57,670 nucleotides of DNA, from positions 1-57,670 of the forward strand of contig CAJBVW010000019.1 of the NCBI GenBank assembly GCA_903959175.1, given 5' to 3'. The notes under the pieces were generated by a model, which was not told where the DNA came from, searched no databases, and worked only from the letters and a program-made list of their open reading frames with translations. The stretch is from an uncultured Pseudomonadota bacterium. Lineage in GTDB: Bacteria > Myxococcota_A > UBA796 > SXON01. The number at the start of each line of letters is the position of its first letter. Position 1 is the first letter of the stretch. Both the position numbers and the translations under genes were made by a program. Shown piece by piece: positions 27,066-34,090 of the stretch.

Positions 27066-27994
27066 CAGACGACCGGCGCCGGGGCGGGAGGTCCGGCGGG
27101 GAAGCGCGCGAAGAGGGCGACCGCGACGAGGAGCAGCACGATGCCGCCGGCGACGCCCATGACGCCGACCACCTGGGGCGCGCCCGCGTGGAGGATGAGC
27201 TCGTGGAAGCCCATCAGCGCGTTGAGGACGCCGTGCGCGACCGCCGCGGCCCACACGGTCCCGCTCGCCTCACGCACCCAGGCGAGGAGCGCGCCGAGCG
27301 GGATGGAGACGCCGATCAGCACGAGCGTGCCCTGGAGCGGCGCGTCGGGGAAGTGCCCGGCGAGCAGGACGAGCGGCGCGTGCCAGATGCCCCAGGCGAG
27401 GCCGATGAGCAGCGCGGCGGGCCAGAAGCCGAGCGGACGGAGCTCGCGGAAGAGCACGCCACGCCAGCCGATCTCCTCGGCGAAGGCGAGCGGCGCGTAG
27501 AAGAACAGGCCGACGATGAGCGCCTGGAACGAGGCGAGGAGCGGGTACGGGACCGAGGAAGCGTCGAGCCCGGCGCGCATCTGGGCCGCGGCCTCCTCCC
27601 CGCGGAGGGAGAGGACGCGCTCGACGATGGGGCCGCCGGTGAGATCGAGGGTGGCCCATCCGAAAGCGTTGGCGACGAACGCCGACGCCCACACGATGAG
27701 CACGGGCGCGAGCCAGGACAGGACGACCACGCCGCCGAAGCGGAGGCTCGTGTCCAGGCTGGAGGCGGGCTCGTGGACGACGAAGCGCTTCCAGAGGAGG
27801 GAGGCGAACAACGGACCGACGAGGAAGGGCACGGCGAGGAGGAGGCTCCAGTAGCCGTCGACCGGGAGGCGAAGGGCGGCGACGAGCGCGGCGATGCCCC
27901 AGCTCCAGGCGAAGACCAGGGCCAGCCACGCGCCCGCGCGGCGGAGGAACGTACGGGAGACGCCCGCTTCGGCCGGATGCGGCTCGGAACTCAA
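27065..27994 (-). CDS. CPBP (Rce1/Abi) family glutamic intramembrane protease
   Basis: AEEIGWRG, WGIWH and HGVLN motifs in a multi-TM protein. TTG start overlaps the upstream stop. Confidence 0.92.
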   Translation of the reverse strand: MSSEPHPAEAGVSRTFLRRAGAWLALVFAWSWGIAALVAALRLPVDGYWSLLLAVPFLVGPLFASLLWKRFVVHEPASSLDTSLRFGGVVVLSWLAPVLIVWASAFVANAFGWATLDLTGGPIVERVLSLRGEEAAAQMRAGLDASSVPYPLLASFQALIVGLFFYAPLAFAEEIGWRGVLFRELRPLGFWPAALLIGLAWGIWHAPLVLLAGHFPDAPLQGTLVLIGVSIPLGALLAWVREASGTVWAAAVAHGVLNALMGFHELILHAGAPQVVGVMGVAGGIVLLLVAVALFARFPAGPPAPAPVV

Positions 27995-29508
27995 TGGGTC
28001 ACCTTCGGGAGGTAGGTCGCGTGGTCGAAGCGCCCTCCGTCTTGCTTGCCGTCGTGACAGTCGACACAAACGGAGACGTCGGGCTTCGCAATCATCTCCA
28101 CCGTCGGCGGCTTGGCAACGTGCGCCTTGCCGGGACCGTGACATGCCTCACACCCGACGGCCTCGAGGCCCGCGACGGCGCCGGGATCCTGGGGGCCGTC
28201 CGGATGGAAGGCGCCGGTGACGTGGCAGGAGTAGCAGGAGCGATCGCGCTCGTTTCCCGCCGTCACGAGCGTGCTCCAGGCGCGGGAGTGGGCCGTACCG
28301 CCCCACTGGGCCGCCTGCTCGGCGTGGCAGCCCGTGCACGCGGAGGAGCCGGCGAAGGGGCTGTTCGCGAGGGCCGAGACGGTGGACACGGGCTCGGCGG
28401 CCTGGATCGCCACCTTCGCCTTCGCGACGAGCGCGGCGGTCGCGGCGTGGTCGGCGATGTCCGTTCCGAGGTCGACGAGGCGGTTGGTCACCCGGTGCGC
28501 GGGCTCCTTCGCGGTCGCGGCATCGGTGAGCGAGCCCTCGACCTCCACGAGCTTCCCCTCGAAGAAGCTGACCTGCTTCCCGATGCGCTCCCGCGTGGGG
28601 TCGTCCTTCGCCTCGGACTGACGCTTCTTCAGCTCGGCGACGCGGTTGCGGTAGCTCTCGCGCTGGTCCGCGAACTGCTGCAGGGCCTGACCGTCCCGCC
28701 ATTTGGTCGCCCCTGGAGTGAGCGTGTACGAGATCACGCCGACCTGCTTGCCGCGCGAGCCCGCCGCGAGGAGCATGCCCCCGTTCGAGAGCGCGTCCGG
28801 ACGCTCGAGCTGCTTGCGCTCCTGGCCGTTGACGATGAGGGAGACCGTCGGGAAGGTCGCGGCGAGCGCCTCGTCTTCCTGAACCTTCTGGCCCGAGAGG
28901 ACCACGATCACCCCCGGCGGGGCGGCGGCGATGGCGGCGCGCGCGGCGGCCATCGGCTCGGTGGCCCGGCAGCCGGGCTCCTTCGCGGAGTTCCCCACCA
29001 GGCCGATGACGGTGAGGGTCTGCCCGCCACGGTCGACCGACACGGAGGCCGGGAACGGGTTGGAGCCGCCACAGTCAAGGTTCGCGGCGACGTACGGGAG
29101 GGAGTAGGCAGCGGCCAGCTCTCGTACGGTCGCGATGCCGAGGGCGAGGTCACCGGCGCCGGGGAGCATGGCGTCCACGCCGACGAGCGCGTAGCCCTCG
29201 GCGAGGAGCCGCGCCTTCTCGAGCTGCTGCGCGCGCTCGGTGTCGCGGAGCGTTGCCCGGCCCCAGAAGAGGTTGCCGGCGTCGAGCACGACGACGGGGC
29301 CGTCCTTTCGGAGCCCCTCAATCACGGTGTTTCGTCTGGACAGACCGCCCATGGGATGTTTGGGTCAACCACAGGGCTCGATCTCGCCGTCCACGTTGCC
29401 CGTGTAGGCGAGGGTGAGCGCGCCGGGAGGCGCCACGGGGACGTCGGGCGCGCCGCACGCGGTGAAGGCCAGCGCGACGAGGGCGACCATGCGGGGTCCG
29501 AACCTCAC
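27991..29508 (-). CDS. Selenocysteine-containing lipoprotein: UshA-like N-terminal domain (CGU motif), coiled coil, tetraheme cytochrome c (c554-like)
   Basis: The frame continues upstream of the track ORF through one TGA (29365-29367): (M)RFGPRMVALVALAFTAC...LTLAYTGNVDGEIEPCG-U-PKHPMGGLSRR...VLDAGN. Heme motifs CTGCH, CYSCH, CEACH, CVDCH. SECIS present. Alternative ATG start at 29490. Confidence 0.88.
29337..29364 (-). promoter_or_regulatory. Bacterial SECIS element
   Basis: After the UGA: CCCAAACAUCCCA-UGGGC-GGUCU-GUCCA. Five-pair stem; the apical GGUCU starts after 18 nt from the UGA. Confidence 0.8.
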
Positions 29509-30983
29509 TTCTTCATCTCGGCACGCTCGGACTCGATGCGTGAGCGGCGCTCGGTCTTCTCGTCGTCGCCCGTCGCCTTACGACGGTGCTCGCGAAGGAG
29601 GTCCTTCACCACGTCGATGACGCCGCTGTCGATGATGTAGACCTCAGGGAACTCCAGGGCGCGGGCGTAGAAGCGCTCTCGCTCGTGGCCCTCGGGGTCC
29701 GTGACGGGCGAGGCGTTCTTGCCGACGACGACGGTGCGGGCCTCGCCGCTGCGGTCCGTCATCACGATGGTCGCACGGGGGGACTCGAAGCCGTACTCGC
29801 TGCCCTCGGCGACCTCGGCCACGAACTCGTCCGCCTGAACATTCGCCACGCGGGTGGCGAGGCGCTTCGGGGTGCTGCCGGGGACCGGCACGCCGGTGTC
29901 CCATAGCCAGGTGTCGGCCTCCATCGTCACGGTCACGGTGCCGGTGAGATCGGGGTCGCGCTCGTCCCCGGCGTAGGTCGTCACCATGGAGGCGAGCGTG
30001 TTCGGGTCCATGCGCGCGAAGCGCTTGAGCCGGAAGGTCTCGGGCTCCGCGAGGTAGTCGTCGAGCAGGCCGTCGCGGGCGGCGTAGATGGTCGGCTCGT
30101 CCGCGAGCTTGACGTAGGCGAGGGCGTACTCTCCGTCCTTCTCGCCGGTGACGCCGCCGAGGAGCAACGTGAGGGGGTCGCGGCCAGAGAAGCGGATGGT
30201 GATCTGGGCGCGCGGCGCGTCCAGGCCGTACTTCGCGAAGTCGGTCGTGTCCTCGGTGACGAAGTCGACGGCCTTGAGCGCCGAGACGCGACCGAGGAGG
30301 CCGCGGATCTCGCTGTCGTTGGCAGCGAAGGCCTGCGGCGCGAGCATGTCCCAGCTGTTCTCGCCGGTGCGCTGGAAGGCGAGCCGCTTGCCCCCCGGGA
30401 GCTCGGCCGCGAGGGCGTCGACGTCCTTGCTGTCAAAGGAGGCGAAGCGCCGCTCTCGGAACTCGGCGAGCGAGAGGCTGTAGTAGTCCACCGCCGACTT
30501 CTTCACGGTGTAGACGGCGGTGTCGCCCGACTTCCGGATGTAGAAGCTCACGCCGGACGGGTTCGGGTCGCCGGCGTCGAACTCCTCGGTGGAGCCGTCG
30601 CGGAAGGTGAGCTTGACGTGGATGGTGCTGTTGCCGAGGCCGTAGAGGGCGTCGTCCGCGGGGCCGTCCACGACGCTGGCGCGCGCGACGAGGTCGTGGA
30701 GCTGGTGCTTGACGCGGTTGACCATCGAGCGGCTTGCGCGGAGCTCCTCTCCCTCCAGCCACCACCCGTCCGCGCGCTCGGCGAGCACGATGGCGCCGTC
30801 GGGCCGGGTGACCTCGACCTTGACGAGGTTCGCCTTCTCGAAGACGAAGATGGGCTTCTCGTTCTCCTTGAGGGCGGCCTTGCGCTCGGCGGGAGTGAGC
30901 TCGGCGGGGCGGACCATCCACCACGCGCCCAACAGGCCGAGCAGCGCGACGAGCGCCAAGAGGGTGCCGCGAAAGTTCTTCAT
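29505..30983 (-). CDS. DUF4340 domain-containing membrane-anchored protein
   Basis: N-terminal TM, then three repeats with YGL/YGF..P motifs (LYGLGNS, KYGLDAPR, EYGFESPR); follows a GldG-like gene. Confidence 0.85.
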   Translation of the reverse strand: MKNFRGTLLALVALLGLLGAWWMVRPAELTPAERKAALKENEKPIFVFEKANLVKVEVTRPDGAIVLAERADGWWLEGEELRASRSMVNRVKHQLHDLVARASVVDGPADDALYGLGNSTIHVKLTFRDGSTEEFDAGDPNPSGVSFYIRKSGDTAVYTVKKSAVDYYSLSLAEFRERRFASFDSKDVDALAAELPGGKRLAFQRTGENSWDMLAPQAFAANDSEIRGLLGRVSALKAVDFVTEDTTDFAKYGLDAPRAQITIRFSGRDPLTLLLGGVTGEKDGEYALAYVKLADEPTIYAARDGLLDDYLAEPETFRLKRFARMDPNTLASMVTTYAGDERDPDLTGTVTVTMEADTWLWDTGVPVPGSTPKRLATRVANVQADEFVAEVAEGSEYGFESPRATIVMTDRSGEARTVVVGKNASPVTDPEGHERERFYARALEFPEVYIIDSGVIDVVKDLLREHRRKATGDDEKTERRSRIESERAEMKK

Positions 30984-31014
30984 GTCGCTTCCTCCCGATC
31001 CGCCGAACCGCGGA

Positions 31015-32469
31015 TCATTGGCCGCGCCTGGACGACCAGACACCCGCGCCCAAGAGGACCGCGAGGAGCGGACCGATGGAGAGCACGAGCCAGCGCACCT
31101 TGCCGAGGTCCTCCGCGGAGAGCGCAAGGCGACGGACCATGCTCGGACGCCCGACGACGGAGAGTCGCCCTTCGTCTCCGAGGAGCCAGCGGAAGGTGTT
31201 GATGGCGAAGCTGGCGTTGCCGGGGCCTTCGGCGAGGAGGCCGTTCGCGATCGCGTCGGCATCGCCGAGGACGACGACGCGAGCGCCGCCGCGCTTGACC
31301 AGCCCGGACTCGGGGCCGAGCTCGAGCGCGAGGGCCATGGCCGCGGGGCCGGCACCGTCGATGTCGGCCTCGAACCTGGCCGCTCCGCTGTCGAGCGCGC
31401 CGCCGCGATCGATCCAGCCGTCGCGCGAGGTCTCGAGGAGAGTGGAGGCGCGGACGCCCTCTTTCGGCGGGACCGAGGCCTGCACGGGCGCGGCGCGCGA
31501 CACGACGGTCACCAGCATCTCGTCGGAGAGATCCTTGGTGATCGGGTGCGACTTGTACCGGGGCACCGGGCGATCGGGGTACGGGAAGACGAGGAGCTTG
31601 TCGAGGACGATACCGTCCGGCACGACCACACCGAGGCGGCCGAGGAGGCTCGGCACGTAGGAGCCGGGCTCCACCGCGACGAGGACCGACCCGCCCGTGG
31701 CGAGGTAGCCGAGGATGAGGTCTTCTTCGAGCGCGGGGATGGCGACGCGCGGACGGGCGATGAGGATGGCCGCGGCGTCGTCGGGGACGCGGGGGGCCAC
31801 CTGATCGCGGTCACGCACGAAGTCGAGCTTCTTGAGGTCGTAGTTCTCCTGGTCGAGCGCAGCGGCGAGCTCGGACAGGCCGTTCGGGTCGTGCCCCTCC
31901 ACGTCGAGCTCGCCGTGGCCGACGAGCGCGTAGACGACGCGCCGGCTGTCGGACATGAGCTGGGAAAAGGCACGGTTTATCCCTGCTTCTCCCAGGAACT
32001 CGATCTTGCGGTCGTCCCCCTTGCCGGAGCGGCGGAAGAGGTCGCGGTCCTGGAGGTCGACGCGGCGGTCGCCGCGCTGGACGACGACGGTGCCGTAGTC
32101 GGTCACACCAAGCTTCTCCGCGGTCAACCTCTCCTTGTCGAAGTCGATGAACCGGGTCTCGACGATCGCCGAGTTGTAGTCCATCTCCTCGAGGAGGTCC
32201 TGGAGCTGGCGGTCCTTGAAGTAGGACTCCTTCTTCCCGCGCTGCGCGGAGAAGGCCGTGACGGTGACCGGCTGCCCGTCCCGGTCGAGGAGGCCGAGCT
32301 TGTTGACCGTGTCGGCGGCGAGGACGCTGCCCTGATCCGCAGATAGATCCAAGCGGATCCGGAAGCGGTCGACCAGGAGGTAGACGACGACGACCGCCGC
32401 GACGACGAGGACCGTCACCGCGGTGGCGTTGGAGCCGACGGCGAGGCGGCGCTGCAGGTTGCGGTTCAT
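31015..32469 (-). CDS. GldG-family ABC transporter auxiliary component
   Basis: RLDLSAD, VYALVGHGE, SHPITKDL, RVVVLGDAD, NTFRWL; N- and C-terminal TM segments. Confidence 0.88.
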   Translation of the reverse strand: MNRNLQRRLAVGSNATAVTVLVVAAVVVVYLLVDRFRIRLDLSADQGSVLAADTVNKLGLLDRDGQPVTVTAFSAQRGKKESYFKDRQLQDLLEEMDYNSAIVETRFIDFDKERLTAEKLGVTDYGTVVVQRGDRRVDLQDRDLFRRSGKGDDRKIEFLGEAGINRAFSQLMSDSRRVVYALVGHGELDVEGHDPNGLSELAAALDQENYDLKKLDFVRDRDQVAPRVPDDAAAILIARPRVAIPALEEDLILGYLATGGSVLVAVEPGSYVPSLLGRLGVVVPDGIVLDKLLVFPYPDRPVPRYKSHPITKDLSDEMLVTVVSRAAPVQASVPPKEGVRASTLLETSRDGWIDRGGALDSGAARFEADIDGAGPAAMALALELGPESGLVKRGGARVVVLGDADAIANGLLAEGPGNASFAINTFRWLLGDEGRLSVVGRPSMVRRLALSAEDLGKVRWLVLSIGPLLAVLLGAGVWSSRRGQ

Positions 32470-33176
32470 CGCCACCGGCGCGACTCCAGTGAGCGGAAGG
32501 TCAGGAACAGGAAGACCGCCGTGAAGGCGACGAAGTAGAAGATGTCCGCGCTGTCGAGCACGCCGCGGTTGAACGAGTCGAGGTGGACGAGCACGGAGAG
32601 CGGGCGCACGGTGTCCGCCCACTCTTCCGGCAGGAGCGCCTCGGCCCGGCCCACGAGCCAGAACGGCAGGAGGAGGACGATGCCGACGAGGCCAGCCGCG
32701 ACCTGGTCATCCGTGAGGGAGGAGGCGAACAAGCCCGCGGCGCAGAACGCGGCGGCGACGCCGACCAGCCCGAGGTAGCTCGTGAAGACGACGCCCCAAT
32801 CCGGGTCGCCGTAGTAGGCGAGCACCGCCGGGAAGACGAGCGTACCGAGGAACATCAGGAGGCAGAGCGTCAGCGAGGCGAGCCACTTGCCGAGCACGAT
32901 CGCCCCGAGCGAGACGGGCGCCGTCATCAGCAGCTCGAGCGTGCCGAGGCGGCGCTCCTCAGCGAAGTGGCGCATCGTGAGCATCGGGAGCACGAAGAGC
33001 TGGGTGATCGCGAGGTTCCCGAGGAGGACGCGGAGCGAGGCCTCCCCCGTGAGGGTGACGCCCAGGTAGAAGAACAGGCCCGCCAGGAACAGGAACGCCG
33101 AGAGGAACACGTACGCGAGGGGGCTCACGAAGTAGATCCGCATCTCCTTCTTCCACAAGGTCCAGATCGCCCTCAT
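32466..33176 (-). CDS. ABC-2 type permease (GldF-like)
   Basis: KEMRIYFVSPLAY, LTMRHFAEERRLGTLELLMTAP, IVLGKW, RGVLDSADIFY. Confidence 0.92.
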   Translation of the reverse strand: MRAIWTLWKKEMRIYFVSPLAYVFLSAFLFLAGLFFYLGVTLTGEASLRVLLGNLAITQLFVLPMLTMRHFAEERRLGTLELLMTAPVSLGAIVLGKWLASLTLCLLMFLGTLVFPAVLAYYGDPDWGVVFTSYLGLVGVAAAFCAAGLFASSLTDDQVAAGLVGIVLLLPFWLVGRAEALLPEEWADTVRPLSVLVHLDSFNRGVLDSADIFYFVAFTAVFLFLTFRSLESRRWR

Positions 33177-34090
33177 TCACGCCCCACGATGGAGACGAAG
33201 GCCTCCTCCAGGGTCGGGAGGCGGTGCTCGAGGGTGCGCACGCGGGCACCGGCCTCGCGGGCGAGCTCGGCGACGGCGGGGCGGGGGTCGACCCGGGCGT
33301 TGAGGCGGAAGGTGCGCCAGGCGCCGTCCGCACCGAGGGGCTCGACGAGATCGACCTGCGGGAGCGCGCCGAGGCGGGGGCCGTCGAGCCCGTCGACCTC
33401 GACGAGGTACCAGTCGCCCCGGGGCGCCATCGCGCGGAGCTCGTCCAACGAGCCCTGCGCCACGAGCTGGCCCTTGGTGATGACCAGGGCGCGCGGGCAG
33501 AGCGCCTCGACCTCGGAGAGGATGTGCGTCGAGAGGATGACGGTGTGCGTGCCGGCGAGGGACTTCACGAGGTCCCGGATGCCGACGAGCTGGGCCGGAT
33601 CGAGGCCGCTGGTGGGCTCGTCGAGGATGAGCACGGGCGGATCGTGGAGGAGCGCCTGAGCGAGCCCGACGCGCTGGCGGTAGCCCTTCGAGAGCGAGCC
33701 GAGGATGCGACGCTCCCAGCCCGAGAGCCCGACGCGCTCCATCACCGAGCCGGTGCGCTGGTGGCGTGCCCGCCCGGTGAAGCCGCGAAGCTCGGCGATG
33801 AACCCAAGGTAGTCGCCGACGCTCAGCTCGGGGTACAGCGGCGGGGACTCCGGCAGGTAGCCGACGCGACGCTTGACCTCCATCGGGGACTCGAAGACGT
33901 CGAACCCCGCCACGCGCGCGTCTCCCCCGGTGGCCGGGAGGAACCCCGTGAGGATCCGCATCGTGGTGGTCTTGCCCGCGCCGTTCGGCCCGAGAAACCC
34001 GACGATCTCGCCCCTTTCGATCGTGAAGGAGACGTTGTTCAGCGCGAGGCGCGGACCATAGGACTTGGTGAGGGCGATGGCTTCAATCAT
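33173..34090 (-). CDS. ABC transporter ATP-binding protein (GldA-like)
   Basis: GFLGPNGAGKTT, VGYLPESPPLY, LSKGYRQRVGLAQAL, ILDEPTSGLDP. Confidence 0.95.
   Translation of the reverse strand: MIEAIALTKSYGPRLALNNVSFTIERGEIVGFLGPNGAGKTTTMRILTGFLPATGGDARVAGFDVFESPMEVKRRVGYLPESPPLYPELSVGDYLGFIAELRGFTGRARHQRTGSVMERVGLSGWERRILGSLSKGYRQRVGLAQALLHDPPVLILDEPTSGLDPAQLVGIRDLVKSLAGTHTVILSTHILSEVEALCPRALVITKGQLVAQGSLDELRAMAPRGDWYLVEVDGLDGPRLGALPQVDLVEPLGADGAWRTFRLNARVDPRPAVAELAREAGARVRTLEHRLPTLEEAFVSIVGRE

Follow-up and report, generated by a model that had tools for sequence, protein, structure and literature searches.

A lipoprotein of the UshA-like selenoprotein family, with a nucleotidase-like domain and a tetraheme cytochrome tail, very probably read through an in-frame UGA in a Myxococcota_A genome

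We analysed a stretch of 57,670 nucleotides (here called the window), contig CAJBVW010000019.1 of assembly GCA_903959175.1 from an uncultured bacterium (GTDB lineage Bacteria; Myxococcota_A; UBA796; SXON01), and in it a minus-strand gene whose reading frame is interrupted by a single TGA. We conclude, with high confidence, that this gene encodes a selenocysteine (Sec)-containing, extracytoplasmic lipoprotein of 505 residues that belongs to the NCBIfam family NF041198 and would be decoded with SelB, and for which we propose a redox role that joins Cys46 and Sec48 to the hemes of a cytochrome tail. An earlier note, made from the sequence alone, had proposed a hidden selenoprotein at this place, and the conserved TGA, the Cys-bearing homologues, a selenocysteine insertion sequence (SECIS) like that of fdhF and the Sec machinery of the genome all support that proposal.

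Both the family and its CxU motif are already known and modelled, as is its standing as a selenoprotein family, and the window gene is a further member of it. The earlier note had treated UshA-like CxU selenoproteins as already known, and this is borne out both by the literature and by Sec forms that we found in Desulfobulbia loci. Within the passages that concern it, 'COG0737, UshA-like, CxU' stands among the known selenoprotein families in PMC2398784 (2008), 'UshA-like protein' is named as a selenoprotein family in PMC9312934 (2022) and the UshA-like selenoprotein family is given together with NF041198 in PMC13188914 (2026); these same passages give no function for it. Nor did we find a functional study of the family in those parts of the literature on UshA-like or Myxococcota selenoproteins that our search reached.

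Results

The mechanical open reading frame (ORF) of the window begins at an ATG, and 52 extra codons precede it in the same frame, interrupted solely by the TGA (Table 1). With that TGA read as U, the local protein sequence is EIEPCG-U-PKHPMGGLSRR. The earlier note had described a frame open through one TGA, these flanking residues, a GTG start overlapping the stop of the upstream gene, an N-terminus ending in AFTAC, taken as a lipoprotein signal, and locally AT-rich codons, and each of these was confirmed: translation gives the context as described, the start and the upstream stop share the letters GTGA at 29508..29505, and G+C dips to 0.61 at 29300..29399 between flanks of 0.70-0.79. The N-terminus, MRFGPR-MVALVALAF-TAC, fits a lipoprotein, with Phe rather than Leu at residue -3 and with Cys18 invariant in 20 of the 20 orthologues that we extracted and aligned; cleavage of the signal peptide and lipidation of Cys18 are predicted from these residues. 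When translation is started at the ATG, the product opens with MGGLSRR and lacks a signal peptide. As the attachment of c-type heme requires export, a four-heme cytochrome made from the ATG could not mature.

The complete translation scores 291.1 bits against NF041198 (UshA_like_PCGU, 'UshA-like (seleno)protein', an equivalog model), for which the cut-off is 275, and residues 12-490 align with profile positions 5-513 of 519. A search of the bacterium's own genome returned the window gene as the sole NF041198 locus over the cut-off, at 282.9 bits and with one internal TGA. The P-C-G-U motif of the family is present, its U supplied by the in-frame TGA, and all 20 orthologues are alike in this. 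Since the curated model NF041198 spans the entire architecture and takes in the cytochrome tail, the window gene does not found a new family.

We searched 41 genomes in six frames, the window's own and those of 40 relatives, and found a match in every one; in 38 of the 41, a match holds exactly one in-frame TGA, with identity down to 33%, a count that overstates the number of independent observations, as these genomes are kin. The three exceptions are a copy cut by the end of its contig (G013) and two genomes with paralogue-level matches only (G014 and G030). A TGA kept in 38 related genomes is not a read error, which disposes of one way in which the earlier note could have been wrong. Homology upstream of the TGA, whose absence would have been another, runs through all 20 aligned orthologues. 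Their TGAs fall in one and the same column, as they do in 10 further loci, and the 20 share a context of (D)GE(I)EPCG before the TGA and P(K/R)HPxGGL(S/P)RR after it, with the lipobox Cys farther upstream. The invariant residues on the upstream side are D40, G41, E44, P45, C46 and G47.

Cysteine takes the place of the TGA elsewhere, in homologues of the kind for which the earlier note had proposed a search. A wider pattern scan, with one genome per species, returned 310 relatives; 80 loci were kept, and the motif could be read in 65 of them (the other 15 are C-terminal-only matches or start after residue 48). At the column of U48 these 65 carry TGA in 20 cases, Cys in 42 and neither in 3. Sec forms were seen in the Myxococcota clade, in Desulfobulbia and at one Eisenbacteria and one Acidobacteriota locus; Cys forms were seen in Planctomycetota, Verrucomicrobiota, Armatimonadota, the anammox bacteria Scalindua and Brocadia, Acidobacteriota and other Myxococcota, with a Myxococcus Cys form at locus L058. 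The bacterium's own genome holds two Cys paralogues, both with C-G-C. The first (C466:346-1713, plus strand) is fused like the window gene and 32% identical to it. The second (C515:3540-4960, minus strand) is split, a nucleotidase-like gene adjoining a tetraheme cytochrome gene. The database record P0064 likewise has Cys at the U48 position. We considered and rejected an alternative genetic code with TGA as Trp or Gly, since TGA terminates both the upstream gene and the selenoprotein gene and the homologues have Cys.

Further partial relatives lie on contigs C559 and C293 of the same genome. The three wider loci with neither Cys nor Sec at the U48 column read ERWGRP (L049), DGCGGL (L095) and AGVGTG (L111), and the equivalent of Cys46 is missing in L049 and L111 and kept in L095. 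The Cys/Sec redox pair is therefore not universal across the wider family.

Directly 3' of the TGA lies the hairpin UGGGC-GGUCU-GUCCA (Table 1), where the earlier note had drawn it. Its GGUCU loop begins 18 nt past the UGA, and our reading of E. coli K-12 fdhF, in which the TGA is followed by an 18-nt spacer and then by GGTCTG, agrees with the note's statement that fdhF has the same register. Codon usage in the 20 orthologues sets this segment apart. Among 41 invariant columns of at least four-fold degeneracy, 3 use a single codon, and these three are the consecutive codons 54-56, GGC GGT CTG; the remaining invariant columns for Gly, Pro, Leu and Arg each show 2-5 codons. With a G+C content of 0.91 at third codon positions (GC3), the gene seldom uses a codon such as GGT. 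At the equivalent site in the two Cys paralogues of the same genome, GGUCU was not found.

On its own, the 27-nt segment adopts the drawn fold at -6.2 kcal/mol, and the corresponding fdhF segment folds at -5.7. Across 29 distinct sequences, a 7-bp version of the helix has 88.7% of its cells paired, compared with 24.6-55.2% when the partner strand is slid, and in 2 of the 29 the fifth pair is G-C instead of U-A. The frozen codons, the register and the fold of the minimal segment bear out an fdhF-like hairpin, which is beyond chance by conservation and not by folding energy. One Sec-form orthologue, from a Red Sea metagenome-assembled genome (L039:6079-6120, plus strand), reads CTCGGC-GGTCT-CGCCAG; it is a natural SECIS variant with the stem register shifted by one base and a GUCU tetraloop closed by G-C.

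The genome has what is needed for decoding. Matches over the curated cut-offs were found for selA (466 bits, contig C335), selB (284 bits, contig C342) and selD (272 bits, contig C56), together with one tRNA-SeC(tca) on contig C144, so that all of the sel genes to which the earlier note had looked are present. The selA contig is very short (1810 bp) and the match starts at position 52 of the profile; it is the assembly that truncates the gene, which is not shown to be broken. Formate dehydrogenase is the commonest bacterial selenoprotein. The formate dehydrogenase alpha homologue of this genome (C560:8501-10519, minus strand; 714 bits, above its cut-off) contains no in-frame stop, which suggests that the Sec machinery may be retained for a limited group of proteins, the window protein among them. 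A genome-wide scan of open frames for TGA-N14-stem-GGTCN-stem gave four matches, among which the window's own is alone plausible; it revealed no further selenoprotein gene, the other three having Arg-rich, off-frame-looking translations.

To describe the protein itself, we used profile searches, Foldseek and an AlphaFold2 (AF2) model built with the 20-sequence alignment (mean predicted local distance difference test score, pLDDT, 79.7; predicted template modelling score, pTM, 0.74). The N-terminal domain, mostly above pLDDT 90, has the calcineurin-like alpha/beta sandwich fold: Foldseek matches it to UshA, CD73, other 5'-nucleotidases and SoxB with probability 1.00 and E from 1e-11 to 3e-15, and the PDB profile search gives the Thermus 5'-nucleotidase 2z1a at E 7e-11. 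The five motifs that form the dinuclear metal centre of metallophosphoesterases (DxH, GD, GNH(E/D), H, GHxH) have all been replaced. Against 2z1a, NDTH has become GNVD, DAGD has become DAGN, GNHE has become GAGD, LSH has become LSG and GGHSH has become NGQER, and no conserved His cluster is left in the domain. The degenerate ligands named by the earlier note (GNVDG, DAGN, PGAGD) align to motifs I-III of 2z1a and are indeed degenerate there. The C-G-U triplet sits in the loop right after the former motif I, a position that would place it at the mouth of the old active site.

Where 5'-nucleotidases have their C-terminal domain, this protein has a pair of long helices (275-332), together with a small beta/alpha element and a module like cytochrome c554. 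Pfam recognises only the heme part (PF13435, residues 390-458; 45.2 bits against a gathering threshold of 20.8, E 1.9e-11), and PDB profiles match it to 1bvb (E 7e-16) and 6i5b (E 3.5e-21). All four CxxCH motifs are invariant in the 20 orthologues. Beyond the histidines of those motifs, H407, H463 and H505 are the only invariant ones, and just three for four hemes leaves one heme without an obvious His as sixth ligand.

In public records the clade is represented by truncated proteins. Our database search gave 119 matches, the closest 89 of which (P0002-P0090, at least 36% identical) are 328-511 residues long; P0064, the Cys form, alone among them spans the N-terminus, and P0003, for example, begins MIEGLRAEGP, past the TGA. 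They are named 'multiheme c-type cytochrome', 'predicted CXXCH cytochrome family protein', 'hypothetical protein' or '2',3'-cyclic-nucleotide 2'-phosphodiesterase (5'-nucleotidase family)', and none of the 89 is labelled a selenoprotein.

Table 1. Features of the gene for the predicted selenoprotein and of its upstream neighbours, in window coordinates
Feature	Position	Strand	Details or basis
Complete gene of the predicted selenoprotein	27991..29508	minus	505 codons and TGA stop; GTG start; one internal UGA (Sec48)
Mechanical ORF	27991..29352	minus	453 aa; ATG start
Start codon GTG	29508..29506	minus	overlaps the TGA stop of the upstream gene (29507..29505) as GTGA
Predicted lipoprotein signal peptide, residues 1-18 (MRFGPRMVALVALAFTAC)	29455..29508	minus	Cys18 codon 29457..29455
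Cys46 (TGT), partner of Sec48 in C-G-U	29371..29373	minus	invariant in 20/20 orthologues
In-frame UGA, codon 48, very probably read as selenocysteine	29365..29367	minus	same column in 20/20 orthologues and 10 further loci
SECIS mini-helix, U-GGGC / GGUCU loop / GUCC-A	29337..29351	minus	frozen codons, fdhF register, fold, pairing counts
5'-nucleotidase/SoxB-like metallophosphoesterase-fold domain, residues ~30-272	28693..29421	minus	2z1a profile match, Foldseek, AF2
Long helical hairpin and linker, residues ~273-371	28396..28692	minus	AF2 helices 275-299, 303-332, 355-371
Cytochrome c554-like tetraheme domain, residues 383-505	27994..28362	minus	PF13435, 1bvb, 6i5b
Four CxxCH motifs	28324..28338, 28222..28236, 28138..28152, 28054..28068	minus	C391, C425, C453, C481
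Upstream DUF4340 gene, last of the ABC set	29505..31355	minus	Pfam; stop overlaps the selenoprotein start
GldG-like ABC_transp_aux protein (PF09822)	31015-32622	minus	Pfam
ABC-2 permease	32466-33176	minus	Pfam
ATP-binding cassette (ABC) ATPase	33173-34090	minus	Pfam

Upstream of the gene, the four-gene set at 29505-34090 (minus strand) resembles the GldA/F/G exporters of the gliding-motility type. Downstream are an Rce1-like protease, TsaD, an rRNA adenine dimethylase (PF00398), a PP2C phosphatase, an M23 peptidase and SecA. A DUF4340 gene lies upstream of the selenoprotein gene in all 19 family orthologues, and TsaD lies downstream of it in 15 of the 19; among the 80 wider loci the figures are 7 and 8, and there the order from the ABC genes to TsaD recurs in distant members of the clade with PCGU-P and is absent from every other clade. 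As this set of neighbours is confined to the PCGU-P Myxococcota clade, its conservation may be plain lineage synteny and not a functional link. Comparison of the neighbourhoods found no partner gene common to different phyla. The Armatimonadota and anammox forms adjoin a DUF1573 protein, and the Cys forms of Planctomycetota and Verrucomicrobiota adjoin DUF4159 and a thioredoxin-HEAT protein. The cluster of these last two phyla (loci L046, L053-L055, L065, L072, L073, L075, L086, L087, L090 and L100) is specific to that group and comprises a conserved DUF4159 protein, two large proteins that match no Pfam family and one of about 1300 residues with thioredoxin-like and HEAT-repeat parts.

Discussion

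One way to view the function of this gene is as a route from a selenium centre to a chain of hemes. SelB carrying Sec-tRNA(Sec) would bind the hairpin on the translating mRNA and insert selenocysteine at the UGA, and the product would be exported by the Sec protein-export pathway, lipidated and furnished with its hemes. Within the former phosphoesterase pocket, Cys46 and Sec48 would then form a reversible selenenylsulfide, and electrons would move two at a time between this pair and the chain of four hemes. On this account the protein would be a periplasmic oxidoreductase acting on a small substrate, most plausibly a peroxide or a compound of sulfur or selenium. We infer the coupling of the Cys/Sec centre to the four hemes, and the exchange of electrons between them is supported by analogy with related bacteria, in which a c554-like module is fused to redoxins with a CPHC motif. 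Among functional models, we hold this redox pair of Cys46 and Sec48 tentatively, at a little short of an even chance.

Several observations weigh against the reading of the gene as a selenoprotein with this function. As to the hairpin, 9 of the 29 distinct sequences lack the fifth pair, and double changes occur in three cells of that set, a level matched by 216 of 500 shuffles. RNAalifold gives a 4-bp stem with 0 compensatory pairs for the 20 orthologues. The hairpin is no more stable than its shuffled counterparts (z = +1.26 over 71 nt and z = -0.21 over 27 nt), and the minimum free energy structure of the 71-nt segment is without it. In 28800..29800, Rfam at E up to 10 returned no SECIS family and one chance match to a snoRNA. 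As to what the protein does, the listing of the UshA-like family in PMC2398784, PMC9312934 and PMC13188914 is, in the passages concerned, bioinformatic only, and the neighbouring ABC exporter set, Rce1-like protease and TsaD give no metabolic hint. In the AF2 model the Sec loop (47-50) lies below pLDDT 50 and the heme domain at 55-70, which tells against the catalytic model. Finally, D40, E44 and D76 are invariant in the 20 orthologues, so that one metal site of the N-terminal domain may survive.

Those three residues, which lie beside the motif, would also suit a true selenoprotein in which Cys46 and Sec48 bind either a metal, in place of the lost dinuclear centre, or one heme as its sixth ligand, so that the active site would be a Sec-ligated metal or heme. 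The fold is, after all, a metalloenzyme fold, and the three invariant histidines outside the CxxCH motifs leave one heme in want of an obvious distal His. One of the hemes of cytochrome c554 is five-coordinate, and SoxAX and TsdA have hemes ligated by Cys. We nonetheless regard this alternative as unlikely, because the N-terminal domain has no conserved His cluster, the CxU/CxC spacing is typical of redox pairs in selenoprotein tables, so far as the portions consulted extend, this heme module occurs elsewhere in fusion with CPHC redoxins, and the AF2 model shows no confident contact.

It is very improbable that the protein, as a true selenoprotein, has kept hydrolase activity of the kind shown by SoxB and 5'-nucleotidases, releasing for example sulfate or phosphate from a carrier-bound substrate, with hemes that are downstream or structural. 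Its resemblance to SoxB in sequence and fold speaks for such an activity and is weak (E of about 1e-6 for 4uwq and 2wdc, Foldseek ranks 23-49), and the SoxB model TIGR04486 gives 28 bits, far under its cut-off of 550. The motifs have moreover changed from D-x-H to N-x-D, GD to GN, GNH to GAG, H to G and GHxH to NGQE, and the C-terminal substrate-binding domain has been replaced by helices and a cytochrome.

Gene callers and public records do end or start at the TGA, deposited relatives are truncated at about 430-465 residues and the mechanical ORF opens at ATG 29352, but that the TGA is a true stop, leaving a pseudogene or a 47-residue lipopeptide beside a 453-residue cytoplasmic protein, is next to incredible and was rejected, given its place in one column of all 20 orthologues with protein sequence strongly conserved on both sides, its single occurrence in the match in 38 of 41 related genomes, the Cys of the homologues, the frozen hairpin codons, the complete Sec machinery and the fact that a c-type cytochrome with four hemes could not mature if it lacked a signal peptide.

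The reading of the gene as a SelB-decoded selenoprotein has consequences for the records as well as for the biochemistry. The whole Myxococcota clade of the NF041198 family is deposited in truncated form, without the signal peptide or the active-site motif, and the clade's fdhF-like SECIS and the loss of the metal site from its nucleotidase-like domain are documented here. The family is also widespread, with Cys relatives in at least six phyla. A bolder and doubtful proposition is that Cys46-Gly-Sec48 makes the metal-less phosphoesterase pocket into a selenium catalytic site wired to four hemes, one of them perhaps without a His sixth ligand, and so defines a class of periplasmic selenoenzyme without a characterised member. 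If that were true, its substrate would open up an unrecognised and widespread extracytoplasmic redox reaction.

Comparison with known systems

The hairpin is most readily compared with the SECIS of E. coli fdhF. The two share a GGUCU placed 18 nt after the UGA and an apical loop on a short, G+C-rich helix; they differ in stem sequence and in the host protein, which is unrelated. The fdhF SECIS has a bulged U, and at this position the window hairpin has a U-A pair.

Within NF041198, the window protein shares the P-C-G-U motif, the alternation of Sec and Cys and the combination of a nucleotidase-like N-terminal domain with a tetraheme tail, and it scores barely above the cut-off (291 versus 275). 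Its Myxococcota clade reads PCGU-P(K/R)HP, whereas Sec forms of the Desulfobulbia type read PCGU-K/S/Q..Q, and identity between the two is 23-28%.

With UshA, CD73 and SoxB the protein has in common the fold of the N-terminal domain and a GG(L/V)xRR segment. Unlike them, it has replaced metal motifs, lacks the C-terminal nucleotide- or substrate-binding domain and carries Cys-Gly-Sec after motif I. It works unlike these enzymes and is not a functional member of their number.

Its heme-binding motifs and their spacing are those of Nitrosomonas cytochrome c554 (1bvb) and of the multiheme protein 6i5b, with the differences that the module is here the C-terminal domain of a lipoprotein and not a free carrier, and that its distal ligands are identifiable in part.

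The c554-like module occurs in other company in records P0105-P0120 of related bacteria, where it is fused to a redoxin of the thioredoxin fold (PF00578 or PF08534). We read the sequences of two of these, P0113 and P0119, and each has a signal peptide, a CPHC redoxin domain and then two c554-like tetraheme modules. They resemble the window protein in joining a heme module to a thiol-based redox domain behind a signal peptide, and differ from it in having a thioredoxin fold with CxxC in place of a nucleotidase fold with CxU, and two heme modules. By analogy, these redoxin fusions may be the best guide to how the window protein works.

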